From sequence record MK234886: 64,000 bases of DNA. The stretch is one strand, 5' to 3'. Each line of letters opens with the position of its first letter. The stretch's first letter is position 1. The notes under the pieces were generated by a model. It was not told where the DNA came from, made no database searches, and was given only the letters and a program-made list of their open reading frames with translations. This stretch comes from Escherichia phage AnYang. Of this stretch, positions 6,546 through 61,801 are shown one piece after another. The position numbers were made by a program, and so were the translations under genes.

Positions 6546-6570
6546 TTTATTCTCCTTAGTTGATAAGGCT

Positions 6571-6600
6571 ATAGTATCACTACCATAGCCTGGTGTAAAC
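6571..6600 (-). promoter_or_regulatory. T4-type early promoter (-35 GTTTAC, TGn-extended -10 TACTAT)
   Basis: Minus strand reads GTTTAC-N18-TACTATAGCC; upstream of ORF 6306-6545. Confidence 0.55.
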
Positions 6601-6828
6601 TTATTTTTGAATTAAGCCCATATAAAATTTAGCGTCTTCCGGGTGCATACCGTCACAATACTCGTCAGCCATAAAGCGGGTAAGGTCTTCAAGAGGACCT
6701 TGGACTTCAATTTGCATACTGCAGAATTGCGTATCTTTAATATAGGTCATAACTAAAGAAGGATAACGATTACGGATAACTTCGTAAGTGTATTCAAAAT
6801 CAACGATATCAATATTAACCTTAGCCAT
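6601..6828 (-). CDS. hypothetical small protein (frd.2 position)
   Basis: 75-aa ORF preceded by an early-promoter motif. Confidence 0.5.
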
Positions 6829-6858
6829 TTTATTTTCCTCATGTAGTTGATAGGTTCT

Positions 6859-6887
6859 ATAGTATCATGTTTAAAGGCATTGTAAAC
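6859..6887 (-). promoter_or_regulatory. T4-type early promoter
   Basis: GTTTAC-N17-TACTATAGAACCTATCAAC on minus strand; upstream of ORF 6601-6828. Confidence 0.55.
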
Positions 6888-6939
6888 CATTAAATGCCAA
6901 AAAGGGAAGACCGAAGTCTTCCCATTATAAATCAATAAC

Positions 6940-10473: not shown

Positions 10474-11421
10474 TTAATAAAAATCAGCTACTGTAGCGGT
10501 TAGTTTAGACAAACCGGATTTAACGAAATAAGGATAAACTTTAGATTTCGAAGGTTTGTTATACGTATTATATCTTTCAGTAATTAAAGCAACAATATCA
10601 TCTGGAATAAAGTCCATATCAATTAAGATTTGGTTTTCACAGAAACGTTCATATTGTTCTTCAGTAAGAAGTGTTTTAATTATATCATGGTCATAATAAT
10701 TAAGAGCAATTGCTTCAAGTTCCTTGGCACGAGTGCTAGGAGTACGTTCGCCTTCAACCATTGTCAACCAGTAATCACCACGAACTTTAATACTCGCAAC
10801 GTTATCTTTACGGTCGCCTTTAACTACTTTAGTTACACAATCAAGCAAGGCATCGCCAGATTTCGTTTTGACGAATTTTTTCTGCATTGGAGACCATTGT
10901 TTTACCCCAGGGAATTTATGAAGTTGGGTAAAGTCACCATCCGAAGAACCGATCATAACAGGATGGCCTAAAGCCGTGAGGATGCGAGTCAATACAGCAA
11001 TATGGTCATCAGCTTCGATTGTATCGATATTCATAACAATATAAGGCATGTTTTGTTCCAGTTCATCAACAATAATATGCATTGCAGTGAATAAACCTTC
11101 CCAATCAAATGGTGATTCGTCACGTGCCTTAGCACGGTTTTTCTTATAATAAGAAGAATAACGACGACGCCAATAACCTGATTTAGAGTTATCGACACAA
11201 ATGATTAATTGGTTGTAACCTTGTTTTTTAAAGTCTTTAATGTTTTTCTTAATTGAATTCAACACGAGATGTCGAAGCATTGCTGTAGTTACTTTAGGAA
11301 ATCCAGCATTTTCACCAAATTCTTGGAAAGCCGCAGCCATAATGATTTGGCTGAAGTCTAACAACAAGAATCCATCTTTTTGTTGGTCTTCTTCAGGAAG
11401 TAAAAAATCTAAATCGTTCAT
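10474..11421 (-). CDS. rnh: RNase H (5'-3' exonuclease)
   Basis: Internal start MNDLDFLL chosen because the upstream ATG at 11454 lies inside the promoter -10; CIDNSKSGYWRR, SSDGDFTQLHK motifs as T4 RNase H. Confidence 0.85.
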   Translation of the reverse strand: MNDLDFLLPEEDQQKDGFLLLDFSQIIMAAAFQEFGENAGFPKVTTAMLRHLVLNSIKKNIKDFKKQGYNQLIICVDNSKSGYWRRRYSSYYKKNRAKARDESPFDWEGLFTAMHIIVDELEQNMPYIVMNIDTIEADDHIAVLTRILTALGHPVMIGSSDGDFTQLHKFPGVKQWSPMQKKFVKTKSGDALLDCVTKVVKGDRKDNVASIKVRGDYWLTMVEGERTPSTRAKELEAIALNYYDHDIIKTLLTEEQYERFCENQILIDMDFIPDDIVALITERYNTYNKPSKSKVYPYFVKSGLSKLTATVADFY

Positions 11422-11452
11422 ATGAACCTCTGTCCAATTAGTGTAGAGGTTC

Positions 11453-11481
11453 ATTATATCATGACCCTAGAAGAAGTAAAC
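11453..11481 (-). promoter_or_regulatory. T4-type early promoter for rnh
   Basis: GTTTAC-N17-TATAAT on minus strand; shares its -35 region with the plus-strand gene 34 late promoter. Confidence 0.6.
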
Positions 11482-16561: not shown

Positions 16562-16563
16562 GC

Positions 16564-22737: not shown

Positions 22738-23009
22738 AAATTGGAGGTATACATCATTAAATAACGGTGTATATCTTCATACCCTTCATTAAATTGCTCA
22801 ATAAGAGTTTCACGCTCATCTTCAGTTAAAGACTTAAATAATTTGTTATAAGACAAACCATTAAGTTCCTTTCCATGTTCATTACGAATACCTAACTCAT
22901 TCAAAAAGGCAATAAACTCATCACGACGTTGCATGATGTCTTCACAATCCGTTTTAATCAAAATGGAAACAATAGTGGCAATTTCGGAAACGATTTCAAT
23001 TTTAGTCAT
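22734..23009 (-). CDS. asiA: anti-sigma70 factor AsiA
   Basis: 91 aa; IATIVSILIK...FIAFLNELG...YRYLMMYT matches T4 AsiA. Confidence 0.85.
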   Translation of the reverse strand: MTKIEIVSEIATIVSILIKTDCEDIMQRRDEFIAFLNELGIRNEHGKELNGLSYNKLFKSLTEDERETLIEQFNEGYEDIHRYLMMYTSNF

Positions 23010-23050
23010 AATATTCTCTTCAATTCAGTACGACATTATCTGATAGGGCT

Positions 23051-23079
23051 ATACTAACATATCCTTAGGGATTGTAAAC
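23051..23079 (-). promoter_or_regulatory. T4-type early promoter for asiA
   Basis: GTTTAC-N17-TAGTAT-AGCCCTATCAG on minus strand. Confidence 0.55.
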
Positions 23080-24426: not shown

Positions 24427-24743
24427 CCTTTAACACGCTGCCATAAAGTTTTCTGTTGAGCTTTATTAACACCAATTGAACGAATAACCGGCTGTGATTC
24501 CTGGTATTCTTTATAGTCGGCTTTATAAACTTCATAAGCGGCCGGAACAAAGGTGCTGATTGCTGCCATAAAGTTCTTACGAATTCCCATAGAAGCTTCA
24601 GAACCACCACGGATGATTAAGTATTTACCTGCTTTAATCTTAACAATAGTGCCGAGATAAGCGCCATGGTACCAAATGTCCCAACCTTCTTGAGTAGGTT
24701 CTGCACAACGACGAAGTTCATTAACAATATTCAGCTTGTTCAT
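24414..24743 (-). CDS. hypothetical protein
   Basis: 109-aa ORF. Confidence 0.5.
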   Translation of the reverse strand: MNKLNIVNELRRCAEPTQEGWDIWYHGAYLGTIVKIKAGKYLIIRGGSEASMGIRKNFMAAISTFVPAAYEVYKADYKEYQESQPVIRSIGVNKAQQKTLWQRVKGWFK

Positions 24744-24761
24744 AATAATTTCCTCAGTCAG

Positions 24762-25394
24762 TTAAATTGCGTTGGTTACGGTTTTGATAACTTCAGATGA
24801 TACGTTTTGGAAGTCGATATAAGTATTCTTACCACCAGTCTTAATCTTAACATCAAGATTCAAGGAAGTAAACACTTGTTTTTCTTTATCAGTCATATTA
24901 TAACCGAAGATGCGCATCATTCCGTCACGACGGACTTCGATTTGACGAATACCATTGGTACGTTTGGCGAATCGAACTTCAAGGTTGCTACGGTTTTCAG
25001 CAATTTCACGAATCTCGATACGGTCTTCTAATAAAGCTTTAACTTCATCAGCCAGTGTTACCATTTCAGGAGTAACACCACGTGAACTACGCGTTTTACG
25101 TTTTTCCAACATCTCTGGGGCATTTTCAGAAGCGAACAGGTCAGCAGCTTTTTGAACTAGGTCCATTGCTTCACCCGTAGCCACTAAACCATCACCAGAT
25201 TTTTCGATGAATCCTTTCTTAATCAATACACCGATGTTAGAGTTAACTACCGCAGCACTAAATTGCTCACTCAGGGCTTCACGGACTTCGCCTGAAGTGA
25301 TGAAGTTATGCTTGATGATATGTACTAAGATCGAAGCAGTTTTTTCATTCAGGACGTCTTCAGAAGCTTTGATGATATAAGTAATTTTAGACAT
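24762..25394 (-). CDS. motA: middle transcription activator MotA
   Basis: 210 aa; MSKITYIIKAS...VVNSNIGVLIKKGFIEKSGDGL matches T4 MotA. Confidence 0.85.
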   Translation of the reverse strand: MSKITYIIKASEDVLNEKTASILVHIIKHNFITSGEVREALSEQFSAAVVNSNIGVLIKKGFIEKSGDGLVATGEAMDLVQKAADLFASENAPEMLEKRKTRSSRGVTPEMVTLADEVKALLEDRIEIREIAENRSNLEVRFAKRTNGIRQIEVRRDGMMRIFGYNMTDKEKQVFTSLNLDVKIKTGGKNTYIDFQNVSSEVIKTVTNAI

Positions 25395-25467
25395 TTTAAT
25401 CTCCGATAACCATTTATTTGATAGGTCTATAATAACATTATCATAGACCTTTGTATATAATTTTTAA

Positions 25468-25707
25468 TTAAATTGCGCTTTTAACATAATCAACATAAGC
25501 TTCAACAACTTTCTTAGAAGAAATTTTAGCTTGACCACGACCATTACCAGTTTTTAAATTTTTCTTAACAACCACTTTATCTGACTTAACACCCCATACA
25601 TGGATATAAGTATCTAAATCACAATCAAAGAACATTGCATGATCGGTATTAGCGTTGTAGAAAAAAGAATTAATATTTAAGGTTTTCATTTTGTATCTCC
25701 ATTTCAC
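25468..25707 (-). CDS. hypothetical protein
   Basis: 79-aa ORF directly downstream of an early-promoter motif. Confidence 0.5.
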   Translation of the reverse strand: MKWRYKMKTLNINSFFYNANTDHAMFFDCDLDTYIHVWGVKSDKVVVKKNLKTGNGRGQAKISSKKVVEAYVDYVKSAI

Positions 25708-25727
25708 TCTGTTGTTTTGATAGGTCT

Positions 25728-25756
25728 ATAGTATCATGTTTAAAGCAGAAGTAAAC
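25728..25756 (-). promoter_or_regulatory. T4-type early promoter
   Basis: GTTTAC-N17-TACTATAGACCTATCAA; directly after the gp52 terminator. Confidence 0.6.
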
Positions 25757-25775
25757 ACTTTTTTTCACTAAACCC

Positions 25776-25797
25776 AAAAAAGGAACCCGAAGGTTCC
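25776..25797 (-). terminator. intrinsic terminator after gene 52 region
   Basis: Minus strand GGAACC-UUCG-GGUUCC followed by UUUUUU. Confidence 0.65.
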
Positions 25798-25902
25798 TTA
25801 CTTTTTAAAGTGGGCCGCTATTAAACCTATAGCTAAGCCTGTCGCCAGGCCTAGAATAACAGCAAAGATACAGAGTAACAAGAACTCGACTCCAAGGCTC
25901 AT
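25798..25902 (-). CDS. hypothetical small membrane peptide
   Basis: Manual: MSLGVEFLLLCIFAVILGLATGLAIGLIAAHFKK; ATGA overlap with gp52 stop. Confidence 0.3.
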   Translation of the reverse strand: MSLGVEFLLLCIFAVILGLATGLAIGLIAAHFKK

Positions 25903-27614: not shown

Positions 27615-28063
27615 TAGTACGCCTGCAGAATGAATTTAAAGTTATCAGCCAACATACGGTTCATTTCTTCTAGTGTCTGGAGGTCGGAACTATGATTACG
27701 AGTGAAAGCCATTGCAATTTGACCCTTACCAAAACCTGTAGTCAGAGGTTTCATCTTAGAAGCTGGTACATAAAGAACTTCATACACAACACCGTTCACT
27801 GCCATAGTGCGGGCTGATTGAGAACGTTTCTTACGAATGTTAGCCACGATACCATCAAGACCTTGAGCCGAACGTTGATTACCGACATAAAAACGAGCCG
27901 CTACGACACGAGAATCAGCTCCACCTTTAACAAAGAAGTAGAAGCCTGGCTGGGCAGAGATTTCTTTAGAAGGTTTACCATTTTGGTATTCACCGTTCTT
28001 AACATAAGCAACAGTAGTAGCACCAGCAGACAGAACGTTACGGCGAGTCATATAAGTATTCAT
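27614..28063 (-). CDS. ndd: nucleoid disruption protein Ndd
   Basis: 149 aa; C-terminal [43 protein letters not shown] matches T4 Ndd. Confidence 0.8.
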
Positions 28064-28140
28064 ATCAATTTCCTCAGTAGATTAATGTTTTGTTATCCAG
28101 TCAACGAGAACCATTATAACATGATTCTCGAGGTTGTAAA

Positions 28141-28509
28141 CTATTTTTGTAGCTGTTCTAAAATAAATCCGCTCGTATAAAAGGTAGCATTATAAACCTT
28201 GTTCAGCGGGTTCAAAGCACGTCCATAGGTATCACATAATTCTTTGATAACATTTTCATAACTCACATAATAGCCGCTATGATAATACGGGTCCATACTC
28301 ATACGAAATTTAATGAACCGATAAAAGCCTGTTTCCGGGTCTTGAACGAAAACGAAATCAGCACTCATCATAATTTTTGAATCTACGCCAGGAATCATAC
28401 TTTGATTGAATGCCACCGATGCATCCTGAAGGCTGAGTTGTTTAAAGAACATTACCTTAGCATTACCAAAAAAGATTTTAGACATGATAATTTCCTTATT
28501 CAGCGTCAA
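28141..28509 (-). CDS. hypothetical protein
   Basis: 122-aa ORF (start may be the internal MSKIFFGN). Confidence 0.45.
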   Translation of the reverse strand: MTLNKEIIMSKIFFGNAKVMFFKQLSLQDASVAFNQSMIPGVDSKIMMSADFVFVQDPETGFYRFIKFRMSMDPYYHSGYYVSYENVIKELCDTYGRALNPLNKVYNATFYTSGFILEQLQK

Positions 28510-28750: not shown

Positions 28751-28855
28751 TCATAAAAACGATTGGGAAAATGCTCAATACCATTAACAACACAAACATG
28801 TTCCAAATTGCTTTAAGTAAGTTTTTCATAATCATCTCCATTAGTTGATAGGTCT

Positions 28856-28884
28856 ATAGTATCATGATTAATGGAGATGTATAC
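28856..28884 (-). promoter_or_regulatory. T4-type early promoter (variant -35 GTATAC)
   Basis: GTATAC-N17-TACTATAGACCTATCAACTAA. Confidence 0.45.
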
Positions 28885-28974: not shown

Positions 28975-29241
28975 TCAAAACACCACCTCTTTTATCTCAA
29001 TCAATCCCCTGTACAATGCAGTGCGGAGGTCATAAAGAATATCTATGCCATCAACATTATCCAGTTTTCCATCAATAAGCTTTTTTAAATCTTCCTTGGA
29101 TGCGATTAAGGGACGGAGAAATTTACAATCAGACAGAGATAACTCTGTAGTAACATCATCACCTTCGCCTGACGCGTCATACATAGCGGCAACAACCATA
29201 CCTGTAACTTTGTGTTTAGCGTAATATAATTTGATATCCAT
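28975..29241 (-). CDS. hypothetical protein
   Basis: Track ORF trimmed to internal start MDIKLYYAKHK; the 20-codon extension is read-through of the promoter/RBS motif. Confidence 0.5.
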   Translation of the reverse strand: MDIKLYYAKHKVTGMVVAAMYDASGEGDDVTTELSLSDCKFLRPLIASKEDLKKLIDGKLDNVDGIDILYDLRTALYRGLIEIKEVVF

Positions 29242-29269
29242 TTTGTTCTCCTCATTAGTTGATAGGAAG

Positions 29270-38593: not shown

Positions 38594-39099
38594 ATTGTTC
38601 TCAATTCAATAAAATCTACGAGTTCAGCATGGGATTTGCGGAACATTACTTGGCGGCCACCAATGACAACCTCATCTTCTGGTATTTCGTAAACAGCAAG
38701 ATAGAATCCTTTAGAAGATAATTCAGCACGCTCTTCACGAGTAAACCAGCGCATCATATCATACTCGCTGGCAAAGGCAAAATGGTAGAGGTTAACAAAC
38801 CAACCTGGAATGTAGTTATCTACACCTTTATAATCTTCATGTTCGAATTTGGTTTTAATTACCATATTAGAATTTTTAACCAACAATTCGTCTTGACTTG
38901 GTAGTGGAATATTTTTATTATTGGTATGATGGTGTCTAAAATTAGGTCTGTCGAAACCTACTTCCAATAACCAACCTTCACTCCATTCGTCAAATGAGCC
39001 TCTATACGGGGTTAATTGGCGGCATTGTTGACGAGTGATTGCGATAACATCGCTGTTGTCTAGGATACTGAACGATGACTCCACTCGATAAATTTTCAT
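38590..39099 (-). CDS. hypothetical protein
   Basis: 169-aa ORF downstream of a promoter motif. Confidence 0.55.
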   Translation of the reverse strand: MKIYRVESSFSILDNSDVIAITRQQCRQLTPYRGSFDEWSEGWLLEVGFDRPNFRHHHTNNKNIPLPSQDELLVKNSNMVIKTKFEHEDYKGVDNYIPGWFVNLYHFAFASEYDMMRWFTREERAELSSKGFYLAVYEIPEDEVVIGGRQVMFRKSHAELVDFIELRTI

Positions 39100-39126
39100 T
39101 TTGTTCTCCTCATGTTGATAGGGTAG

Positions 39127-39155
39127 ATAATATCATGTCATGAGGAGAAGTAAAC
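39127..39155 (-). promoter_or_regulatory. T4-type early promoter
   Basis: GTTTAC-N17-TATTATCTACCCTATCAACATGAGGAG. Confidence 0.55.
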
Positions 39156-41706: not shown

Positions 41707-42456
41707 TTAACCTCTAATCAGTGAAAAAATTGAAGCATTCAGCGGAAGACCTTTTTTCAACTTCAATTTGTCAATAAAAGAAAGGTGTTCTAAACGCTCC
41801 AGACCTTGAATAATTTTATCATACATATCGTAACGCGTTTCTGCTTCAGACAATTTAAACTTGACGCGCCAATCAGGCCCACCAATTAAAGATTTAAGGC
41901 CTTTTTCCATAGTACCGATTGAAGCATTAGAACCATGGATACGAGCTTTAACCGCGATGACAGAAGGGGTCTTATCAGTAGCTCCTGATTTAATAAGGTC
42001 CTTAAGACGTTTTTCACGCTTTTTAAGGCCTCTTTGGGTATCTTTAATATTTTTAACGATTTTACGAATTTTATAATAATTATCGGGGGTAACTTTAAAA
42101 CTATTAGGCATTTTAGAACTACCTGAAATACGGGACGCTAAACGAGTCTGTGCACGTTTCAATTCATCTAAAGACAAATCAGCGCGCAACCAGTTGTACT
42201 TAACTTTAACCGGGATTACATTACCTTCGATATAACCTATATCGTTGTTAAAGCGTTCAAAAGAAATCTTATCACTATCTGAATTCTCATCAAAGCGCTC
42301 GCCTGAATATGCACACACTTTTTGTTCAAGAAGTCTACGAACGTACTTACTAGACAGGTTAAAGTCCTTACCACGTTTTTTGGCAGAGGCTTTAGTGTGT
42401 TCGCGACGTTTGTAAACCTTTAACTCAAATTCATCAGTAGTTTTAATAGTAGGCAT
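41707..42456 (-). CDS. hypothetical protein with degenerate HNH-like segment (srd position)
   Basis: 249 aa; CAYSGERF...SFERFNNDIGYIEGNVIPV resembles an HNH motif lacking the catalytic His; size and position as T4 srd. Confidence 0.4.
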   Translation of the reverse strand: MPTIKTTDEFELKVYKRREHTKASAKKRGKDFNLSSKYVRRLLEQKVCAYSGERFDENSDSDKISFERFNNDIGYIEGNVIPVKVKYNWLRADLSLDELKRAQTRLASRISGSSKMPNSFKVTPDNYYKIRKIVKNIKDTQRGLKKREKRLKDLIKSGATDKTPSVIAVKARIHGSNASIGTMEKGLKSLIGGPDWRVKFKLSEAETRYDMYDKIIQGLERLEHLSFIDKLKLKKGLPLNASIFSLIRG

Positions 42457-42496
42457 AATATTTTTCTCATCTTACGGACGATTAGTTGATAGGTCT

Positions 42497-42525
42497 ATAG
42501 TATCACGTTGCTTGATAAAGTAAAC
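42497..42525 (-). promoter_or_regulatory. T4-type early promoter
   Basis: GTTTAC-N17-TACTATAGACCTATCAACTAAT. Confidence 0.6.
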
Positions 42526-42594: not shown

Positions 42595-43209
42595 TCAGTA
42601 AGAAAGAACGGAAAGATTCCAAATGGTGTAATTATTCCATTTAGGATTTCTCTCAATAGAGTCTACGCGCAGCGTAGTTCCCGCAGGGAACATCATCTCA
42701 TCTTCATCATTTATTAATTGTAAGTTTGCTACACGGGTAGATTCAGGAAATGCGCCTGGGAACTCTTCAGGGGGTGCGGCACATAACATTTTAAAGATTT
42801 CTTCCTGATAATTGTACACAAATGGTGCATCATTAATACAAAAGATATTAAATGTGCCGTAGAAGTTATAAGATGCGAAGTTACGAGCTACATTGAAATC
42901 TTTTGAGAAGCTCATTACTCGGTCGAATTCAATTACGGCACCTACACACATTGTGGACTCTAGATACTTCATAGTCTTTTTAGATATACCGCGATAGAGC
43001 TTATCAGGCACTACAGAAGTCAGGTTCTTACGAATAATTTTGTTCAGAGTTTCCTGGATATTATCTGGTTTATTTTCCATGCACTGCCAGAGCGTGCTCT
43101 GTTCTAAATCAGAATAAACCTCATCAATTTCTATCTGAGTATTCTCACGGAAATCATCGCATTTGGCGTTGTTGATAAATTCTGCTAATTTATGGCTCGG
43201 ATATAACAT
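42595..43209 (-). CDS. modB: ADP-ribosyltransferase, ModB-like
   Basis: 204 aa; R-S-E triad elements LYRG, MSFSKD, DEDEM. Confidence 0.65.
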   Translation of the reverse strand: MLYPSHKLAEFINNAKCDDFRENTQIEIDEVYSDLEQSTLWQCMENKPDNIQETLNKIIRKNLTSVVPDKLYRGISKKTMKYLESTMCVGAVIEFDRVMSFSKDFNVARNFASYNFYGTFNIFCINDAPFVYNYQEEIFKMLCAAPPEEFPGAFPESTRVANLQLINDEDEMMFPAGTTLRVDSIERNPKWNNYTIWNLSVLSY

Positions 43210-43234
43210 ATTATTCTCCTCAGTTGGTAGAAAG

Positions 43235-43264
43235 ATAGTACCACAAGCTTCCTTGCCTGTAAAC
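43235..43264 (-). promoter_or_regulatory. T4-type early promoter for modB-like gene
   Basis: GTTTAC-N18-TACTATCTTTCTACCAACTGAGGAG. Confidence 0.5.
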
Positions 43265-43833
43265 TAAAAATCCAACATTTTTAAATGAATTGTTTTGTAC
43301 TCGATTTCGCACGGGTCTCTTTTGACGGTTTCGATTTCAACAATCTCGAATCGTGATAGGCCGGAGACCATGAACTCACATTCAGTTTCAACCATATCAT
43401 AGAGGTCAATACGAGTTTCATCAATTTCAAGGTCGTCTACATTCCCTGCAAGAACAAGGTCGATAGCATGGTTGTAGTAGTCGAAAATGAACGGTGCATT
43501 CCTGAGACTTAAAATGGTTTTGGTTCCGTATTCCCATGCCCCTGCGAACTGACGAGCCTGAGAGTATTGTGTACTAAAAGAAGTAACGCGACCAGGAGAC
43601 CATTGACAACCTACTGAAAGGAGCTCTAATTGCTCAAGTTCTCTGGTGGTAATCCCACGATACAACTCTACCGGAACCGCTGAAGTAACATGCTTACGGA
43701 CTAGTTTGTCGAGGTCGTAATGGAAGTTAGGGTCCTTTTTAGCATCCAGACATTTCTCTAACAACGCTTGTTCAGATTTTGAAAATTTGGAATTGATTCG
43801 GTCTTGATAAAGACATTTTTGTTCGATGTTCAT
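43264..43833 (-). CDS. modA: ADP-ribosyltransferase, ModA-like
   Basis: 189 aa; LYRG, TSFSTQ, ETECEF motifs; tandem with paralog. Confidence 0.65.
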   Translation of the reverse strand: MNIEQKCLYQDRINSKFSKSEQALLEKCLDAKKDPNFHYDLDKLVRKHVTSAVPVELYRGITTRELEQLELLSVGCQWSPGRVTSFSTQYSQARQFAGAWEYGTKTILSLRNAPFIFDYYNHAIDLVLAGNVDDLEIDETRIDLYDMVETECEFMVSGLSRFEIVEIETVKRDPCEIEYKTIHLKMLDF

Positions 43834-43885
43834 ATGACCTCCAGTGATTTAGAGGTCATTATAACATGAAGGGAGGAGGTGTAAA

Positions 43886-44140
43886 CTACTTAAACACACC
43901 AAGTGGGACGCCAAACACTGCAATGTCAGCAGCCATGCCTAATGAGGATTGGGTATATGAAGTATAGGAGCTTTTTGATTCATAAGAGCTTTTTGTTTCT
44001 GGCGCCTTGGCCGTAATCTTAGGAGCTTTTGCCTGAATATTTTTTTGCTCGATTTCCTTACGAGCTTGTTTACGGTCGATATCCAACGTCGATGTAGGTA
44101 TATTAGTTAGCCAATTCATCATTTTACCCAAGGAGCCCAT
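43886..44140 (-). CDS. hypothetical protein
   Basis: 84-aa ORF. Confidence 0.4.
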   Translation of the reverse strand: MGSLGKMMNWLTNIPTSTLDIDRKQARKEIEQKNIQAKAPKITAKAPETKSSYESKSSYTSYTQSSLGMAADIAVFGVPLGVFK

Positions 44141-45466: not shown

Positions 45467-45672
45467 AGGAAACCTCGTTTAAATTCAACTTTATCGATAT
45501 CATCAGTCTCGTGACGGATTTCGGCATTAAATTCGATAGAACCGTCTTCATGCATCATAAATGAATGGACAATAACTTCGGTATACCAAGGCGTATAGAA
45601 GTACTTTTTCAATACGTGGTTAGCTATAATTTCATCCAGACCTTTATTAGGTTTAATCCAACGATTTAACAT
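45463..45672 (-). CDS. hypothetical protein
   Basis: Track ORF trimmed to MLNRWIKP; longer form overlaps soc and contains promoter-derived codons. Confidence 0.45.
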   Translation of the reverse strand: MLNRWIKPNKGLDEIIANHVLKKYFYTPWYTEVIVHSFMMHEDGSIEFNAEIRHETDDIDKVEFKRGFL

Positions 45673-45698
45673 AGTGTTCTCCTCTATAAGATAAGACC

Positions 45699-45728
45699 AT
45701 CTTAACACAACCTTCCTGGAAAGTAAAC
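45699..45728 (-). promoter_or_regulatory. early promoter-like motif (variant -10)
   Basis: GTTTAC followed ~18 nt later by TAAGAT; directly after the soc terminator. Confidence 0.4.
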
Positions 45729-45738
45729 CCTTAAAACC

Positions 45739-45760
45739 AAAAAAGGAACCCGAAGGTTCC
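45739..45760 (-). terminator. intrinsic terminator after soc
   Basis: GGAACC-UUCG-GGUUCC followed by UUUUUU, immediately after the soc stop. Confidence 0.65.
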
Positions 45761-45766
45761 TTATAA

Positions 45767-49576: not shown

Positions 49577-49862
49577 CTGTCACCTCTTTAACGATATTTT
49601 TGTTATCGAAATTGGCATCGCAATACAAAACATAGTTATATTGCATAACACCACCTGAAGCTAATTGGTCTGACACTTCTTTAGCCATATTAGGGCGGTC
49701 GCGTTTAGTGATGTTCATGATATCGGCATAAATCTGGTGTTCAACCGATTCTTGGTCTGCAGTCATAGACCATTCACAAAGGTCTTTATCCAATCCAGCC
49801 GTAACTGGAGCCGTACCACATGATGCTACTGTAAGGATTGCTGCGATTAATAACTTTTTCAT
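49569..49862 (-). CDS. putative lipoprotein
   Basis: Track ORF trimmed to MKKLLIAAILTVASCG (signal peptide plus lipobox); promoter motif upstream. Confidence 0.55.
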   Translation of the reverse strand: MKKLLIAAILTVASCGTAPVTAGLDKDLCEWSMTADQESVEHQIYADIMNITKRDRPNMAKEVSDQLASGGVMQYNYVLYCDANFDNKNIVKEVTGE

Positions 49863-49890
49863 TTTTAACTCCTCGTTAGTTGATAGGTCT

Positions 49891-49920
49891 ATAGTATCAC
49901 TACCATAGACCGTTGTAAAC
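49891..49920 (-). promoter_or_regulatory. T4-type early promoter
   Basis: GTTTAC-N18-TACTATAGACCTATCAACTAACGAGGAG; perfect inverted repeat. Confidence 0.6.
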
Positions 49921-50506: not shown

Positions 50507-50836
50507 TTAGATTTCCTCACAGAAAGCCCATTCGGCATGATAAACCGTAGCGCCTTTAGTATCATTTAAACAAACCACATCTACCGGAGCAATTACACGA
50601 TAAAGACGGGGTTCTCCTCCCACTGAACGAGCTGCACGTCCAGCATAAATCTTAGCCAAACCGATATCTTCAGTAAAGAACACACGATTTAGGTTTTTCT
50701 TACGACCGGTTTCAGACAAAACTCCTGTTTCCTCAGGAGGACAAAGCATATTACCGATATTAGCAACACTACAACTTCCATGATAATACACTTTATATTC
50801 TGCTTTACAGTCGATGGTTTTCATTTTGTTCTCCAA
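50507..50836 (-). CDS. hypothetical protein with possible H-Y-E ADP-ribosyltransferase-like motifs
   Basis: 109 aa; VYYHGS, FFTEDIGLAKIYAG and YHAEW resemble the HGS / aromatic / E elements of PARP-type folds; speculative; first gene after the gp41 terminator and a promoter motif. Confidence 0.5.
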   Translation of the reverse strand: MENKMKTIDCKAEYKVYYHGSCSVANIGNMLCPPEETGVLSETGRKKNLNRVFFTEDIGLAKIYAGRAARSVGGEPRLYRVIAPVDVVCLNDTKGATVYHAEWAFCEEI

Positions 50837-50848
50837 GTTGATAGGTCT

Positions 50849-50877
50849 ATAGTATCACGCCTACAGGAGATGTAAAC
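50849..50877 (-). promoter_or_regulatory. T4-type early promoter
   Basis: GTTTAC-N17-TACTATAGACCTATCAACTTGGAGAAC; directly after the gp41 terminator. Confidence 0.6.
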
Positions 50878-50887
50878 CCTTAAAAAC

Positions 50888-50907
50888 AAAAAAGGAGCCG
50901 AAGCTCC
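50888..50907 (-). terminator. intrinsic terminator after gene 41
   Basis: GGAGC-UUCG-GCUCC followed by UUUUUU, immediately after the gp41 stop. Confidence 0.65.
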
Positions 50908-52347
50908 TTAAAATTTGATAGATGCGGCTAAATCGTCCAAATCACTTCTATTAACACGCGTCTGTCGATTGACCTCGGCTTGACGATTCATCTCACCTGT
51001 AGCCTCACGAACAGTGTTCACTGGACCTGGATTGGAATCATCTTCAACTTCGTACCAACGTTGATTTCCTTTCTTAACACCAATCTTAAATTTGTTGTAG
51101 TAGCTCTTATCACCATAACGAGATTTAAGCTGCTTAACCATCTGCATACCCATTTGGGCAAACTCTTCTGTCTCGACCACACCTAACATGAAGTCTGCAG
51201 TATGTGCAATACCAAAGGATTCGGCAATATCAGCCATATCGATTTCGGCTGCAACGTTCGCACCACGAGTAGTCTGGGCTGCAGTCCACAACAATAATTT
51301 CTTTTCTACTGCAAGTCCACGTAGTTCTTCGGCTACCATCTTAATCAATCCGTAACTGTTTTCAGAGAAAACTTTCGTACGAGACGATGCACAGATGGCC
51401 AAGTAGTCGACGATAACGACCTGTGGGACAAAGTTTTGTTTGAGCTTATATTCGTTTAATAATGCACGGAATGTATCGGCATTAGCACCACCAGTAGGGT
51501 ACTGTTTAATCTTTAAACGTCCTAAGGTAGCAGTCGAACGCCATTTATCCATCTTAGCTTTATATTCAGGCCATGATACGTGACCATCATCGATATCATC
51601 CAGTGACACATCCAGAAGGTTGGCATCGATACGCTTAGCACATACTTCCTCTGCCATCTCCATGGAGATATAAAGAACATCGTAACCAGATTGAAGGTAA
51701 TCAGCAGCCAATGAACACAGACCAAGAGACTTACCTACGTTTGTTCCTGCCAACAATACGTTTTCAGTACCAAACTCGGCACCACCTTTAGTAATCTTAT
51801 TCAGAATATTAAGACGGAACGGAACCTTACGTGCTTTATCGGAATAACTTTTGAATCGTTCTTCATAGTCATCCATCCAGTCATGACCTAATTCAGAATC
51901 GAAACAAATCGATAATGCATCACGCATGATATCTGGAATAGCGCCAATACCTGGAAGTTTTCTATTTTGTTGCTCAACCGGAAGGTCTGCATTAGTTTGG
52001 ATTTCAATGATTTTTGAAGTTGCATTATACATCGCTGCTTTCTGAACGTATTTCTCCGTCTCTTTAACCAACCATTCTTGGTCTTCAGGTCCAGCATTCA
52101 GTGAGCTTAAAAGCTCTTTAGCTCCTTGATGTTCGACTTCTGAAAGCGTGCTGTTATCTAATGCAATGCTCAATGCGTTCTTAGAAGGCACTGCATTATA
52201 TTCATTGACGTGTTTTTTAATTTCTTTGAAAAGGGTCTTTGCAGGACCCTGGTCAAAATAAGAATCATTCATATAAGGCCAGACCTTAGTGAAATAATCA
52301 CTATTGCCTAGCAGTTGAGCCAAAATAGTTTCTACCACTTCCACCAC
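50908..52347 (-). CDS. 41: replicative DNA helicase gp41 (DnaB family)
   Basis: 479 aa; size and synteny as T4 gp41. Confidence 0.9.
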   Translation of the reverse strand: MVEVVETILAQLLGNSDYFTKVWPYMNDSYFDQGPAKTLFKEIKKHVNEYNAVPSKNALSIALDNSTLSEVEHQGAKELLSSLNAGPEDQEWLVKETEKYVQKAAMYNATSKIIEIQTNADLPVEQQNRKLPGIGAIPDIMRDALSICFDSELGHDWMDDYEERFKSYSDKARKVPFRLNILNKITKGGAEFGTENVLLAGTNVGKSLGLCSLAADYLQSGYDVLYISMEMAEEVCAKRIDANLLDVSLDDIDDGHVSWPEYKAKMDKWRSTATLGRLKIKQYPTGGANADTFRALLNEYKLKQNFVPQVVIVDYLAICASSRTKVFSENSYGLIKMVAEELRGLAVEKKLLLWTAAQTTRGANVAAEIDMADIAESFGIAHTADFMLGVVETEEFAQMGMQMVKQLKSRYGDKSYYNKFKIGVKKGNQRWYEVEDDSNPGPVNTVREATGEMNRQAEVNRQTRVNRSDLDDLAASIKF

Positions 52348-58655: not shown

Positions 58656-58793
58656 TCAATTAAAACAGTTATACTTAATTTGTGCTATAAGAATAATCCA
58701 TCCGATGATTAGTGTCGGAATCATTGGTGGAATTGCCACTGCCCAATAAACGGTAAAGGCGACCATTATAAGAAATAAAATAATTATTTTCAT
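58656..58793 (-). CDS. hypothetical small membrane protein (imm.1 position)
   Basis: Manual 45-aa ORF MKIIILFLIMVAFTVYWAVAIPPMIPTLIIGWIILIAQIKYNCFN; ATGA overlap with upstream stop. Confidence 0.35.
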   Translation of the reverse strand: MKIIILFLIMVAFTVYWAVAIPPMIPTLIIGWIILIAQIKYNCFN

Positions 58794-59026
58794 TGCTTAA
58801 CGATAATGATTTGCGCGTTTGATTTACGTTCGGCGACGATAGCCCAGATTAAAGCCACTACCCAACCAATCATCGTCCAACCCAACAGGAGATTAAGGAA
58901 GAAAATTCCTACATTACTACGAGTGCCTCGCAGAAGAGCCAGAATCCATGGTAAGAAATAACCGATGAACATAATAACCAGAGAACCGAATCCTAAAACA
59001 CCTGCACTGACGATTAAAGCTTCCAT
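58790..59026 (-). CDS. imm: superinfection immunity protein Imm-like
   Basis: Track ORF trimmed to MEALIVSAGV (GAGGAA RBS); two TMDs; LPWILALLRGTRSN...LLLGWTMIGWVVALIWA resembles the Imm family; position after 43 as in T4. Confidence 0.65.
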   Translation of the reverse strand: MEALIVSAGVLGFGSLVIMFIGYFLPWILALLRGTRSNVGIFFLNLLLGWTMIGWVVALIWAIVAERKSNAQIIIVKQ

Positions 59027-59057
59027 TGTAATTTCCTCTAAGTAGTTGATAGGAGGG

Positions 59058-59087
59058 ATACTACCACGTTCCGTGTGGTATGTAAAC
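59058..59087 (-). promoter_or_regulatory. T4-type early promoter for imm-like gene
   Basis: GTTTAC-N18-TAGTATCCCTCCTATCAACTACT. Confidence 0.5.
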
Positions 59088-59089
59088 AC

Positions 59090-61801
59090 TTAAAAGTCAA
59101 ACATGTCAAATAATGTTGCTTTTTTCTCGTAGTCGATTTTAGCAGACTCGGTAAAACCGGTCAGAGGCTTGATAAAGGTCTTTTGGAACAGTACGTTGTA
59201 GTCCATCCAACGGAGGACTTGGTCACGAATCTGAATCGGAAGTTCAATACCTGAAGGCCATGCCATACAAGCTTCACCAAACGGGTTGCCTTCTTTAAGT
59301 GGCAGTACGTATACCTTTTCACCATCAACGATACGAGGCATAGTCAAATCACCAGCAGAAGCACGCATGTAAGCTAAGCAACCTTTGATGTGGTACGGAC
59401 ACTTAGAACCAGGGAATCCGCCTTCATTATATTTCTCGATGTTGTTAGCACTGGATACTGCTGCAATGCTTACATAGTCCAGTTCGTTAAATTCCTTATT
59501 AAACTGTTTGAAATATTCTTGCAAAGATGCCTCGCCTTCCTGAAGCATACGACGGATACATTCTTTCAGAGCTTTCTGAACCGCTTTAGGTGTACTTGAT
59601 TTCTGGGTTTCGAGCCCCATGATTTTCAAGTGTGGTTCGGCATAACGAGTGCCTTCCATGTCCCAAACGTTAAGTGCATAACGTTTCTTGCCTGTCCAGA
59701 ATCCACCAAGACCTTTAGAACCAAGTGGAGGACCTGCGATAGCTTCTCGGTCCATGAACATCAAGTGTTGTTTGTTGTTCATGTACTCGCACATCTCACG
59801 GAAGCCTGCATCAATAGCTGGTTCCATACGTTCACGTGCAAATTTATCTAAGAAGTCAACCCAGTGGTTAGTGTCACGGAATTTATCTTCGCCTACTTTA
59901 TTGATGATTGCATCTGCCTTAACATAAATGGAGTCGGTATCACCGTAGAGCACGAACTTCTGATTTTCAGTCTTACACACGCTATTCAGATATTCGTTAA
60001 CCTTACGTTCAATCCATTGGAGGGCCATTTGACCAAACAGTGTGATTGCAGTTGCGTTCCTAAGGTCATAGTAACGGAACCATACGTTACCAAGTGCACC
60101 ATAAAGGGAGTTGATAAGCAACTTACGGTTAATCTGAGCAGTGTTACCTGCAACTTCAGTGAGCTCGGCTTTCTTCAACATTTCTCTTAAAGAAGGCGCT
60201 GACAGTGCTTTAATCTGGGCTTTGATTTCGTCAGAGAAGTCAAAACGATAATCGATATCCAGTGGACTATCAACTGAGAGATTAGGATTTTCCAATGCTT
60301 CTTTAATTAACTCGCCATTACGTTGAGCTGCAAGCATGTAACCTTTATGTTCTTTACGCTGCAAGAATACCTTGGTGATTTCTGTCGGAATCACACCTTC
60401 ACGGTCTTTATAATACATCATGCCGTTAGGAGAGCAACTGTAGGTGTCGCTAGGACGCTGAGCAGTTCCGGCAATATATTCATGTATCGGTGCGTTAGCG
60501 AATGTGCCTGCGATGGTCTCTGGGCTTATATTCACTTGTCGAATGATACTCGGATACAGAGATGTAAGGTCGAAACTCATTACATATTTGTAAGCGTTAG
60601 GAATAGGTTCCTTAACGAAAGCACCAGGATAAGGTTGGACCACGTGTGAACGAGCTTGTGGAATTACCTTGCCTTGTTCTTTAAGACTATTAAAGATAAT
60701 AGCATCCCAAGTCTTAATTGGACTGAACACCGACTGAATCTGCATCTTAGCATAATACCCCATGTCCAAACTCAGAAGAATGAACTGGCGTTTCATATCA
60801 ATCTGCACTACACGATATACGTCGATAATGTTATAGGAAATATATCGTTGGTGGTTAGTCTCACGTAACTTGGAGATTGGACCATCATATTTCAACTTAC
60901 CTACTTTCAATTCATATTCAGAAACATAATCCAGAGAATAAGAAGGCTGGTTGGTAAAGCTGAATTTTTTATATAGGTCGATATAATCCAGAACAGAGAT
61001 ACCGAACAAAGTAATGATTTCACGAGCACCGTACATGTTCTCGATAACTTTAACACGAGTTTTACGATGTGGGCTTAATCGCTTAGCAGTGTTCTCACCG
61101 AACAGATTTTTCAGACGGTTATAAACGTATGGTACGTCAAACGACTCAACGTTCCATCCAGTCAAAATCACAGGAGTTTTCTGTTGCCAGAAGTTCAGAT
61201 ACTCAAGCATCATTTCTTCTTCAGAATTAAACGGAAGATAAACGATTTTGTCAATGATTTCTTGTGGAACTTCGTCACCACCTTCGTCTTGGAGTTTCTC
61301 AGCGATTTTAATCGACCACTCTTCAACAGTACCATAAGGTGAAACTAAAAGGTCGAATACATAGAATTTATCGTCAATCGAGTCGTAGTGGGTAATGGCA
61401 TCGATAGGATGTTTAGCCTGAGCTGGTTCAGGGAATCCATCAGGAGATGTTACCTCGATGTCGAAGTTAGCAATACGAATCTTAGAAGAATCATACTTGA
61501 TTTCTTTACGATAGGTATCGGACAAATAGGCTAATTTGTAGTCGTCCATACCCAGGGCTTCGAGACCCATATCGTCCATGCGTTTCATCCATTGGGATGC
61601 ATCACGCATAGAGTCAAATTCTTTCTTAACACAACCCTTACCATAGATATCAATGTATTTTACGGCTTGCTCTGGATTGGCATGCATAAACATTGTAGGC
61701 TTGTAAGGAACTTCACGACTACGTTCGTTACCATTTTTATCGATGTAACGTTCGAGAATATTATCACCGATTTGTTCGACTGTCAAATAGAATTCTTGCA
61801 T
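59090..61801 (-). CDS. 43: DNA polymerase gp43 (family B)
   Basis: Start at MQEFYLTVEQIGDN (track ORF has a 20-codon extension); 903 aa; exo motifs FDIEV, polymerase motifs DLTSLYPSI, YGDTDS; reads closer to RB69 gp43 than T4, from memory. Confidence 0.9.
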   Translation of the reverse strand: MQEFYLTVEQIGDNILERYIDKNGNERSREVPYKPTMFMHANPEQAVKYIDIYGKGCVKKEFDSMRDASQWMKRMDDMGLEALGMDDYKLAYLSDTYRKEIKYDSSKIRIANFDIEVTSPDGFPEPAQAKHPIDAITHYDSIDDKFYVFDLLVSPYGTVEEWSIKIAEKLQDEGGDEVPQEIIDKIVYLPFNSEEEMMLEYLNFWQQKTPVILTGWNVESFDVPYVYNRLKNLFGENTAKRLSPHRKTRVKVIENMYGAREIITLFGISVLDYIDLYKKFSFTNQPSYSLDYVSEYELKVGKLKYDGPISKLRETNHQRYISYNIIDVYRVVQIDMKRQFILLSLDMGYYAKMQIQSVFSPIKTWDAIIFNSLKEQGKVIPQARSHVVQPYPGAFVKEPIPNAYKYVMSFDLTSLYPSIIRQVNISPETIAGTFANAPIHEYIAGTAQRPSDTYSCSPNGMMYYKDREGVIPTEITKVFLQRKEHKGYMLAAQRNGELIKEALENPNLSVDSPLDIDYRFDFSDEIKAQIKALSAPSLREMLKKAELTEVAGNTAQINRKLLINSLYGALGNVWFRYYDLRNATAITLFGQMALQWIERKVNEYLNSVCKTENQKFVLYGDTDSIYVKADAIINKVGEDKFRDTNHWVDFLDKFARERMEPAIDAGFREMCEYMNNKQHLMFMDREAIAGPPLGSKGLGGFWTGKKRYALNVWDMEGTRYAEPHLKIMGLETQKSSTPKAVQKALKECIRRMLQEGEASLQEYFKQFNKEFNELDYVSIAAVSSANNIEKYNEGGFPGSKCPYHIKGCLAYMRASAGDLTMPRIVDGEKVYVLPLKEGNPFGEACMAWPSGIELPIQIRDQVLRWMDYNVLFQKTFIKPLTGFTESAKIDYEKKATLFDMFDF

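Follow-up and report, generated by a model that had tools for sequence, protein, structure and literature searches.

Predicted T4-type early promoters and their stem-loops in Escherichia phage AnYang

The early promoters (Pe) of phage T4 have an UP/-35/TGn/-10 layout, and "additional regions of consensus" have been noted in them (Hinton 2010). C is preferred at positions -3 to -1 of the promoters of RB69, RB49, and 44RR (Nolan 2006). According to reviews, RegB cuts early mRNAs at GGAG, and the shut-off of early promoters is independent of AsiA and ModA. Promoter-early stem-loop (PeSL) cassettes were described in RB49 and phi1 by authors who regard the T-even elements as analogues of PeSLs, not homologues (Arbiol et al. 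2010, PMC2839356).

Two further T4 systems are close to the elements discussed here. GenBank record X04567 covers inverted repeats around T4 early promoters in the 58.3-65.5 kb region (IpII, denV, and ORF 61.9 = regB). In the T4 genes e, soc, 49, and I-TevI, a long read-through RNA sequesters the Shine-Dalgarno (SD) sequence and the proximal promoter lies inside the structure, so that RNA from the proximal promoter, being without the 5' arm, is translatable.

A minus-strand family of predicted early promoters

The window analyzed here is a 64,000-nucleotide stretch of Escherichia phage AnYang (MK234886), ~95% identical to Dhakavirus-type phages, in which rIIA and rIIB are annotated. An initial annotation had listed 15 copies of a promoter-plus-leader motif, and all 15 were found where it placed them, every one on the minus strand and with the layout GT(T/A)TAC, a 17-18 nt spacer, TGn, TAnnAT, and then a (AGA)CCTATCAAC-like sequence. 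The list was real but incomplete, with at least six further promoters of the same type (43886, 38042, 34161, 28141, 25458, and 24873); the one at 25458 (motA) has a AGACCTATCAA block and the other five differ downstream of the -10. The extended pattern TGNTANNATNNNNYTATCAA with at most one mismatch matched 12 times, always on the minus strand, where shuffled sequence would give 0.5 matches and none of 100 shuffles gave more than three, while AGACCTATCAAC with at most two mismatches gave 11 matches against 5.25 expected. A blind scan that used no sequence beyond -7 (GTTTAC with no more than one mismatch, a spacer of 16-19, TG, and TAnnnT) returned 24 sites on the minus strand versus 2 on the plus strand.

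All 21 promoters have a 17-18 bp spacer, a TGn-extended -10, and a TAnnAT hexamer, with a -35 element that is exactly GTTTAC in 18, GTATAC in two (cef and ndd.4), and ATATAC in one (motA). An A-rich, UP-like region at about -40 to -45 is visible as As 5' of the -35 in the consensus of both the window and T4. At 17 of the 21 promoters, the nearest gene downstream is orthologous to a T4 early gene and matches the promoter in orientation; these genes include imm, sp, mrh.2, modB, modA, srd, motB.2, motB, cef, ndd.4, ndd, motA, asiA, rnh, frd.3, and frd.1. The likeness to T4 Pe extends from GTTTAC, spacer, TGn, TAnnAT, and the CTATCAAC(TA) block to strand and gene position (motA, motB, modA/B, srd, asiA, ndd, sp, imm, and others), and supports the original reading, in which a T4-like phage uses the elements as early promoters. 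By sequence they belong to the T4 early type, a well-known promoter class, and are predicted to be active right after infection. The repeat is genuine but largely ordinary, in that conservation past the -10 belongs to a promoter consensus that T4 shares. The two phages do differ in the discriminator (ACAACT in T4, AGACCT here) and in their spacers, which are unrelated, although both prefer TACTAT as the -10; moreover, imm, ndd, cef, modA, and frd.1 have no promoter directly upstream in T4, whereas here each has its own.

The promoter and leader of imm lie at 59024..59087 (minus strand, as are all sites below), with the G of the -35 at 59087, the ATG at 59026, and a read-through fold of z = -0.7. 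The promoter of srd (42454..42525) matches AGACCTATCAAC exactly and has no stem; others precede asiA (23007..23079) and two ORFs without a T4 homologue, one of 88 aa (29239..29299) and one of 107 aa (34112..34161), the last being 3' of a terminator-like hairpin, GGGCCTTCGGGCCC. An early-promoter-like site within the 3' end of the motA ORF (24741..24873) has a 94-nt leader to an arn.4-like ORF.

Five promoters have a terminator hairpin immediately 5' of them, and all five hairpins have T-runs. Terminators stand before the promoters of a 105-aa ORF without a T4 homologue (50822..50909; terminator 50909-50892, -35 at 50877), of mrh.2 (45670..45762; terminator 45762-45743, -35 at 45728), and of frd.3 (6826..6923; terminator 6923-6904, -35 at 6887), and before a promoter at 25687..25799 (terminator 25799-25780, -35 at 25756). 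The 20-mer at 25799-25780 is identical to that at 45762-45743, and the terminator-promoter arrangement at 45728 is kept in T4, RB69, and VR20.

The suspicion that the motif creates spurious N-terminal extensions was borne out, as mechanical ORF calling lengthens 9 of the 21 downstream ORFs. At 59087, 49920, and 29299, a start at the GTG of GTGTTTAC makes the ORF 20-21 codons too long, and a false MEMIMKN extension arises at 28884.

The block downstream of the -10 element

The start of the T4 promoter Pe133295, which is named by its start coordinate, is the seventh nucleotide after the -10 hexamer. By alignment with this promoter, AGACCT is very probably the untranscribed discriminator (-6 to -1). 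Going by the same promoter name and alignment, +1 would be the A of ATCAAC, and ATCAAC(TAA) the initial transcribed sequence. The description of the whole block as a conserved transcribed segment does not hold with this start, since AGACCT would lie upstream of it and only ATCAAC(TAA) would be RNA. GAGGAG, which had been counted as part of the conserved element, is indeed present but is merely the SD sequence.

A comparison with the T4 early consensus, as the initial annotation had proposed, revealed the same block after the -10 in T4. There the blind scan returned 38 sites versus 2, and the consensus reads TAcTAT AcaaCTATCAAcTA. Over -6 to +14, the information sums to 6.1 bits for the window and 5.7 bits for T4. 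The CTATCAAC(TA) block is also found in RB69, VR20, and a Kosakonia phage, with (T)A(T/C)CAAC in RB69, VR20, and Kosakonia phage 305. Because it is common to promoters of T4, RB69, VR20, and Kosakonia phage 305, the block represents a family-wide extended promoter consensus. It is not required for activity, because several clear early promoters are without it (43886, 38042, 28141, 11481, and 34161). No mutational data on the block from -6 to +9 were found in the searchable literature. Slow-escaping initial sequences have spaced T's and TG at +5/+6 (Heyduk 2018); ATCAAC has neither.

At orthologous promoters of Dhakavirus, 12.5% of columns are variable in the discriminator, 14% in +1 to +9, 11% in TGn/-10, 6% in the -35, and 4%, the lowest value, in the SD region, compared with 32% in the spacer and ~30% in flanks and coding sequence. 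The block is accordingly as invariant as the -10, whereas the spacer changes freely. Low variation in +1 to +9 and in the SD region is what would favor the proposal that early mRNAs share a leader function, be it in processing, in translational control, or in recognition by an RNA-binding regulator. The same proposal gains from GGAG, present in the SD of 11 of the 21 leaders, and from the RegB homologues (~58-59% identity) encoded by the close relatives CLB_P2 and NC-G. Half of the block (AGACCT), however, lies 5' of the inferred start, and the conserved RNA is only 6-9 nt long, without structure of its own and at a variable distance from the SD, in leaders of 11-43 nt and, in one case, 94 nt. 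No Rfam family gave a match, the block is common to other phages, and promoters without it drive equally early genes (modB, motB, and ndd). We therefore consider a shared leader function quite unlikely. RegB cleavage at GGAG is plausible from the sequence of those 11 leaders, but it concerns the SD and not the block beside the -10. By synteny with T4, regB would be located outside the window.

The preferred discriminator is specific to the genome, AGACCT occurring seven times in the window and ACAACT nine times in T4, the latter including the orthologous motA, frd.3, and ndd.4 promoters. This indicates homogenization between copies within a genome, although co-evolution with a phage factor could equally be its source. 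Also consistent with exchange, the promoter at 50877 and that of T4 denV differ very little, while the genes downstream of them are unrelated. Taken further, these observations would fit a block without any function, its identity being the trace of recent duplication or gene conversion by the active homologous recombination of the phage, as would the identical 20-nt terminators before two promoters, a T4 subfamily of near-identical ~70 nt cassettes, and the proposed role of PeSL cassettes as recombination linkers. We find this extension doubtful, given that CTATCAAC is common to Tequatrovirus, Dhakavirus, Mosigvirus, and the single Gaprivervirus promoter examined, with a variant in Kanagawavirus, and that variation in the discriminator and initial sequence is two to three times lower than in the spacer, a contrast not expected from conversion alone.

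Were the discriminator instead to co-evolve with a lineage-specific protein, the block from -6 to +9 might be an operator, bound by a phage factor that shuts off early promoters minutes after infection. Its overlap with +1 is a typical repressor position, and such a factor would suit a shut-off independent of AsiA and ModA. The block lacks palindromic symmetry, though, several early promoters do without it, and ATCAAC is unchanged in phages with a different discriminator, and we rate an operator as very improbable.

Promoter-specific stem-loops

About half of the promoters carry promoter-specific stems that pair the spacer with the discriminator or with the SD. Read-through RNA folds with z <= -2.5 at 9 of 20 promoters. 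Stems that include or cross the -10 are present before sp (spackle; 49860..49920; 11 bp, GGUCUAUGGUA-GUGA-UACUAUAGACC; z = -2.98), motB (37970..38042; AGAGCCA/TGGCTCT, covarying across genera; z = -3.43), cef (37329..37391; 12 bp; z = -5.18), and ndd (28061..28141; 10 bp; z = -2.81). The promoters of motA (25392..25458, absent from the original list) and frd.1 (6543..6600) have a 12-bp stem, AGGUCUAUGAUA-AUGU-UAUUAUAGACCU (z = -3.06), and an 11-bp stem, AGGCUAUGGUA-GUGA-UACUAUAGCCU (z = -2.74), respectively. In other cases the SD itself is paired, with spacer TTCTCCTCATG against CATGAGGAGAA at motB.2 (39097..39155; z = -5.07) and spacer CATCTCCATTA against TAATGGAGATG at ndd.4 (28827..28884; z = -3.27). 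Leader hairpins cover the SD at modB (43831..43886; GACCUC...GAGGUC; z = -2.53) and rnh (11419..11481; GAACCUCU...AGAGGUUC), and modA (43207..43264) has a hairpin in its spacer, ACAGGC..GCTTGT.

Cognate spacer-leader duplexes are more stable than permuted pairs in the window (-9.9 vs -7.8, p = 3.5e-4) and in T4 (-12.6 vs -8.1, z = -9.4), and the same holds in RB69 (p = 0.011) and Kosakonia phage 305 (p = 0.0096). The motB stem (38042) is paired in 70 of 70 cells, with both sides changed in four of seven pairs, and the modA spacer hairpin (43264) has a compensatory variant in L009. In silico, the probability that the SD is unpaired falls from ~0.6 (0.56-0.67) to 0.00 in read-through RNA for 39155, 28884, and 11481; at modB (43886) the SD is masked already in the promoter's own transcript (0.19, falling to 0.00). 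About 10 T4 promoters are likewise predicted to mask the SD in read-through RNA. Overall SD accessibility was not reduced with cognate relative to foreign upstream halves (p = 0.85 in the window, p = 0.27 in T4), because the promoter set is bimodal. SD-masking stems have loops of ~25 nt. We infer an RNA-level function of the stems.

Stems are found where the upstream gene stops a few nucleotides from the -35 without an intervening terminator; the -35 of modB is overlapped by the upstream stop codon (TAGTTTAC). The complementarity of terminators and stems is a trend only (1/11 vs 16/41, p = 0.059).

It is also conceivable that the stems act not on translation but as terminators or attenuators of the upstream gene, in line with the 1986 annotation and the PeSL work, or as DNA cruciforms. 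In X04567, T4 repeats B, C, and D bear the label "pot. transcription terminator"; a stem-loop of RB49/phi1 cut downstream lacZ expression as strongly as rrnB T1 (PMC2839356); and extrusion is geometrically feasible for those stems that pair 11-12 bp around a 4-nt loop. Nevertheless, T-runs are present at the five genuine upstream terminators but do not follow the stems that cross the -10 or reach the SD, and the ~25 nt loops of the SD-masking type are unsuited to a cruciform or an intrinsic terminator. In the motB stem, each of the five changes confined to one side leaves a G.U pair on the sense strand; on the other strand this would be A.C, which argues against a cruciform. On balance we hold terminators or cruciforms to be an unlikely account of the stems.

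Like PeSLs, the elements combine a strong early promoter with an adjacent or overlapping stem-loop, which may lie 5' of the -35, between the two boxes, over the -10, or a short way downstream (read-through folds of z <= -2.5 at nine promoters, and five upstream terminator hairpins). In both, the stop codon of the upstream gene lies in an AT-rich region, an SD and start codon end the cassette, and cassette exchange is hinted at. PeSLs, in contrast, cluster upstream of ORFans in hyperplastic regions, with a -35 that fits the sigma-70 consensus and stems built of G-runs and C-runs. Neither sigma-70 consensus boxes nor such stems were found in the window, where the elements have GTTTAC as the -35 and heterogeneous, AT-rich stems (e.g. 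GGTCTATGGTA or TTCTCCTCATG) and mostly precede conserved early genes. Shuffling is hinted at by a duplicated terminator and by a promoter that is nearly the same in T4 and the window but stands before unrelated genes.

In the repeats of X04567 the -10 is in the loop and the ribosome-binding sites of denV and regB are inside the 3' arm, the architecture of 39155 and 28884. That record covers few T4 sites, read as terminators of upstream genes, without statistics, covariation, or cross-genus comparison. The likeness to e, soc, 49, and I-TevI is that the SD is paired in the longer transcript and the 5' arm lies 5' of the proximal start (39155, 28884, and 11481, in silico). The difference is that internal promoters there are late (TATAAATA) and delay expression, while those found here are early.

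We put at roughly 80% the probability that the elements are T4-type Pe that each run into a very short leader with its ribosome-binding site, before immediate-early genes of a Dhakavirus-like T-even phage, with the block acting at the promoter level. Host sigma-70 RNA polymerase would recognize the A-rich UP region, GTTTAC, the 17-18 bp spacer, TGn, and TAnnAT. The block past the -10 would be a part of the promoter rather than a functional RNA leader and may tune how open complexes form, where transcription starts (a pyrimidine at -1 and A at +1), and how fast the polymerase escapes from a promoter that it binds very tightly. Recombination between promoter cassettes (concerted evolution) may have reinforced its near-identity within the genome, and GAGGAG(AAyAAA)ATG would serve as the early-gene ribosome-binding site common to the cassettes. 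At about half of the promoters, the 5' arm of the stem would be in the untranscribed spacer and the 3' arm in the discriminator, -10, or SD region, so that the stems would form only in RNA reading through from upstream. These promoter-specific stems go beyond the repeat originally noticed, and similar stems of T4 had been annotated already in 1986.

Early promoters of the window

At each of the 15 positions for which the initial annotation claimed an early promoter with its leader, the minus strand shows a common layout, and the copies are real. An alignment anchored on the -10 gives GT(T/A)TAC, a 17–18 nt spacer, TGn, TAnnAT, a AGACCTATCAAC-like block, a Shine–Dalgarno sequence (SD) and ATG. 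With at most one mismatch allowed, TGNTANNATNNNNYTATCAA has 12 matches in the window, every one of them on the minus strand; dinucleotide shuffling gives an expectation of 0.5. To guard against circularity, a blind scan (GTTTAC with at most one mismatch, 16–19 nt spacer, TG, TAnnnT) disregarded all sequence downstream of -7; it returned 24 minus-strand and 2 plus-strand sites. The original list stands for the copies it contains but is incomplete, as further promoters lie at 25458, 43886, 38042, 34161, 28141 and 24873 (numbers give the -35 position on the minus strand). The unlisted motA promoter at 25458 has the block, and the other five share the upstream anatomy and differ in downstream sequence. 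Our working set comprised 21 promoters. The spurious N-terminal extensions also claimed occur at 9 of these under mechanical ORF calling, a GTG within GTGTTTAC lengthening the ORFs by 20–21 codons at 59087, 49920 and 29299.

The window is ~95% identical to Dhakavirus-type T-even E. coli phages (Escherichia phage 04086, IME341, vB_EcoM_005, and Bp7), with rIIA, rIIB, denB, and ndd annotated beneath the match. Based on tblastn of the 21 promoters' first genes against T4, they are orthologues of imm, sp, mrh.2, modB, modA, srd, motB.2, motB, cef, ndd.4, ndd, motA, asiA, rnh, frd.3, and frd.1, together with an arn.4-like gene; no T4 homologue of the first gene was found at four promoters. Since these are classic T4 immediate-early genes, the elements are T4-type early promoters, as first assigned. 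This class consists of UP/-35/TGn/-10 promoters, alignments of which “reveal additional regions of consensus” (Hinton 2010).

Gene junctions are extremely compact, with an upstream stop codon no more than 15 nt upstream of the -35 in 11 of the 21 promoters. At 43262–43264, 43884–43886, and 28139–28141 (minus strand) the stop codon overlaps the -35 (TAGTTTAC), the G of TAG being the G of GTTTAC. Early promoters are absent between 11481 and 23079. GC skew is positive at ~12000–22000 and negative across most of the remaining window, and this interval is probably a plus-strand late-gene block dividing two early regions.

A site at 48571 (TGATATAATGGCTCTATTAA) fits the loose pattern but lacks a GTTTAC -35 and was excluded from the early promoters. 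At 48520–48600 (minus strand), TGATATAAT without a GTTTAC -35 is followed directly by a hairpin, GGCTCTA-TTAATT-TAGAGCC, and then by AAGGAAAAATAATG. This could be a promoter of the middle type, or one independent of a -35, with a 5' stem-loop at the beginning of its transcript; no clear MotA box was seen there. Weaker promoter-like sites from the blind scan lie on the minus strand at 44216–44244 and 40113–40142, reading GTTGAC..TG.TATGAT and GTTTAG..TG.TAGTAT with a 19-nt spacer, and other weaker candidates at 50483 and 44315. An early-promoter-like site at 24741–24873 (minus strand; GTTTAC, 18 nt, TGT TAAGAT) lies within the 3' end of the motA ORF, and its leader to the next ORF (arn.4-like) is, at 94 nt, unusually long.

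Identity and constraint of the block beyond the -10

An extended consensus for T4 early promoters was reportedly given by Liebig and Rueger in 1989 and by Wilkens and Rueger in 1994. When 149 kb of T4 was scanned with the blind definition used for the window, the early strand had 38 sites and the opposite strand 2. The T4 consensus past the -10, AcaaCTATCAAcTA, contains the same CTATCAAC(TA) as the window, and information summed from -6 to +14 amounts to 6.1 bits for the window promoters and 5.7 bits for those of T4. (T)ATCAAC is also present in RB69 (Mosigvirus) and VR20 (Gaprivervirus), with the variant ACCAAC in Kosakonia phage 305 (Kanagawavirus), and a C at -3 to -1 was noted earlier in RB69, RB49, and 44RR (Nolan et al. 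2006).

T4 early promoters (Pe) are named by start coordinate, and Pe133295, which appears in the RefSeq record, puts +1 at the A of CTACCAA, the seventh nucleotide past the -10 hexamer. By alignment, AGACCT would be an untranscribed discriminator (-6 to -1) and the A of ATCAAC would be +1, leaving ATCAAC(TAA) as the only part of the block in the RNA. The original reading of the whole segment as a conserved leader with a shared function is largely wrong on what is transcribed, as AGACCT falls upstream of the start aligned from Pe133295, and a leader function is not needed to explain conservation of the block. Leaders are 11–43 nt long, with one of 94 nt, and the gap between block and SD is variable. 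A search of the whole window against Rfam at gathering thresholds returned no family, and hence no known leader RNA. Genome-wide maps of transcription starts in T4-type phages were not found in the literature searched.

Eight window promoters were aligned with their orthologues in six Dhakavirus contigs (L004–L009). Variable columns made up 29% of the upstream flank, 21% of the UP region, 6% of the -35 hexamer, 32% of the spacer, 11% of TGn plus -10, 12.5% of the discriminator, 14% of +1 to +9, 4% of the SD region, and 30% of the coding sequence. Constraint on the block is therefore close to that on the -10, whereas the spacer separating the hexamers is free to drift. Discriminator preference is nevertheless genome-specific, AGACCT occurring seven times in the window and ACAACT nine times in T4, and it differs between the two even at the orthologous motA, frd.3, and ndd.4 promoters. 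T4 also has a subfamily of near-identical cassettes of ~70 nt. The block is thus both constrained and recently copied, a pattern that is the signature of homogenisation between copies over a shared functional core. This fits the recombination-linker idea proposed for the promoter-early stem-loop (PeSL) cassettes of phages RB49 and phi1.

Individual junctions also resemble one another. The stretch 50822–50877 is nearly identical to the T4 denV promoter (NC_000866, ~65378–65413) from -35 to +12, and the genes behind the two are unrelated; 50877 precedes an ORF of 105 aa for which T4 has no homologue. In the T4 copy, spacer and SD pair perfectly over 10 bp (TCTCCTGTAG/CTACAGGAGA), a pairing that a small deletion shortens at 50877. 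Identical 20-nt terminator hairpins (AAGGAACCTTCGGGTTCCTT then a T-run) at 25780–25799 and 45743–45762 (minus strand) directly precede the promoters at 25756 and 45728, and this duplicated terminator–promoter junction suggests cassette copying. The order of terminator then promoter at the mrh.2 junction (45728) is kept in four genera, including T4, RB69, and VR20, with compensatory stem changes. In one Dhakavirus contig from IMG/VR (L005) the cef promoter spacer is replaced by CAGGGTAGTAGTGTGATACTATTACCCTATCAA, which a T4 early promoter also contains; promoter segments have apparently been exchanged across genera.

We infer that the block acts at the level of polymerase and DNA. It would supply a purine start after a pyrimidine and a G two positions past the -10, which we take to be the position contacted by sigma region 1.2. 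Lambda PL (ATCAGC) and T7 A1 (ATCGAG) have similar starts. The initial transcribed sequence has neither spaced T's nor TG at +5/+6, features that mark slow-escaping sequences in a library study (Heyduk and Heyduk), and fast escape should matter where polymerase is bound through four elements. Because several good early promoters do not have the block, it is not a requirement and would be an optimisation.

Predicted promoter-specific stems in read-through RNA

The spacer is often complementary to its own promoter's downstream sequence. We compared duplex energies between the upstream (-36 to -13) and downstream (-8 to ATG) parts of promoters in cognate and permuted pairs, and cognate pairs were more stable in all four genomes tested: the window (-9.9 vs. 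-7.8 kcal/mol, p = 3.5e-4), T4 (-12.6 vs. -8.1 kcal/mol, z = -9.4), RB69 (p = 0.011), and Kosakonia phage 305 (p = 0.0096). Folding of 20 read-through RNAs from the window placed nine at z of -2.5 to -5.2, two at intermediate values, and nine near 0. The spacer takes part in eight of the nine structured folds; in the ninth, modB (43886), the hairpin is within the leader.

Two geometries were found. In the first, a stem of 8–12 bp spans the -10, with TGn in the loop and the -10 hexamer often in the stem, as at sp (49920; GGUCUAUGGUA-GUGA-UACUAUAGACC) and likewise at frd.1, motA, cef, motB, and ndd. In the second, the region just past the -35 forms an 11-bp pairing with the SD, as at motB.2 (TTCTCCTCATG/CATGAGGAGAA) and ndd.4 (CATCTCCATTA/TAATGGAGATG), and the computed probability of an unpaired SD, ~0.6 for the transcript started at the promoter itself, drops to 0.00 for read-through RNA. 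An equivalent drop was computed for about ten T4 promoters. The idea that all repeats mask the SD was dropped, as accessibility was not lower overall with cognate than with foreign upstream halves (window p = 0.85, T4 p = 0.27) and the promoter set is bimodal, one class burying the SD and the other leaving it open beside a local stem that spans the -10.

Two leaders form hairpins wholly within their own transcripts, pairing the 5' end with the SD/AUG region: modB at 43831–43863 (minus strand; GACCUC...GAGGUC) and rnh at 11419–11457 (minus strand; GAACCUCU...AGAGGUUC). On visual inspection, the T4, RB69, and VR20 modB leaders can form an equivalent hairpin from different sequences with G.U pairs. 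The modB hairpin may damp translation of a toxic ADP-ribosyltransferase.

Related loci from IMG/VR numbered only 11 and 17, giving few independent lineages for covariation. The motB stem occurs as AGAGCCA/TGGCTCT (Dhakavirus), GGGACCA/TGGTCCC (T4), and GGGGTCA/TGACCCC (VR20), with a G.U intermediate, GGGGCCA/TGGTCCC, in two loci (L024/L025). In an alignment of ten sequences (A1), from which these two were left out, 70 of 70 cells are paired, compared with 30–47% when partner columns are slid; four of seven pairs changed on both sides, and none of 500 shuffles reached the observed covariation score. On the sense strand, each of the five one-sided changes yields a G.U pair, which favours sense RNA over a DNA cruciform, with few independent events behind it; pairings of the SD type, with loops of ~25 nt, also disfavour a cruciform. 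Stems across the -10 have no T-run, which disfavours intrinsic terminators. Such a stem is kept at cef in four genera with differing sequences, and at sp in three of four genera examined, again with differing sequences, T4 having none.

Stems are found at promoters that abut the upstream gene. An upstream stop codon lies 2–12 nt from the -35 at eight of nine structured and three of nine unstructured promoters (p = 0.025), and all five promoters behind a terminator are unstructured. As strict alternatives, terminators and stems show a trend only (1/11 vs. 16/41, Fisher p = 0.059).

We would give roughly a one-in-three chance to the reading that Tevenvirinae early promoters abutting an upstream gene each carry an RNA stem of their own that is under selection, and that two mRNA populations result, the read-through one being silenced or coupled. 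The 5' arm of the proposed stem would be the untranscribed -35/-10 spacer and the 3' arm the discriminator/-10 or the SD. A transcript from the gene's own promoter would lack the 5' arm and be freely translated. A read-through transcript would fold, and the gene would be silenced or would need ribosomes terminating at the upstream stop codon 2–12 nt before the -35 (translational coupling). The stems could serve in translational masking or coupling, in attenuation, or in RNA stability.

Precedents and implications

The observation of stems is not new in kind. The T4 record X04567 (1986) annotates inverted repeats whose loops hold the -10 boxes of IpII, denV, and regB and whose 3' arms, for denV and regB, include the ribosome-binding site; they are labelled as potential terminators of the upstream gene. 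The PeSL cassettes defined in RB49 and phi1 show the same range of stem positions as here, and the same study mentions JS98 sequences resembling PeSLs, as well as analogous AT-richer elements at the IP loci of T-even phages (Arbiol et al. 2010). In a review of post-transcriptional control in T4, the genes given as having a masked SD are confined to e, soc, 49, I-TevI, segB, and mobE, and the best documented of these use late promoters. The present analysis adds their statistical generality among early promoters of four genera, their covariation, and their division into two geometries. If the proposal is true, the late-promoter device of T4 e, soc, 49, and I-TevI would have a general counterpart in the early phase, and the stem would be an alternative to a terminator at the gene junction.

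For annotation, recognition of the cassettes corrects the start codons assigned to many small early genes, nearly half of the set being over-extended by mechanical ORF calling, and shows where immediate-early transcription units lie in this group of phages. Biologically, most of the finding repeats what T4 already showed. The promoter class is known, and the phage is closely related to sequenced ones. The discriminator and initial sequence are under -10-like constraint yet genome-specific, which bears on how very strong promoters achieve escape and on how early promoters are shut off. The pervasive stems, covarying across genera, suggest that the translation of promoter-proximal genes is systematically separated or coupled between read-through and own-promoter transcripts.
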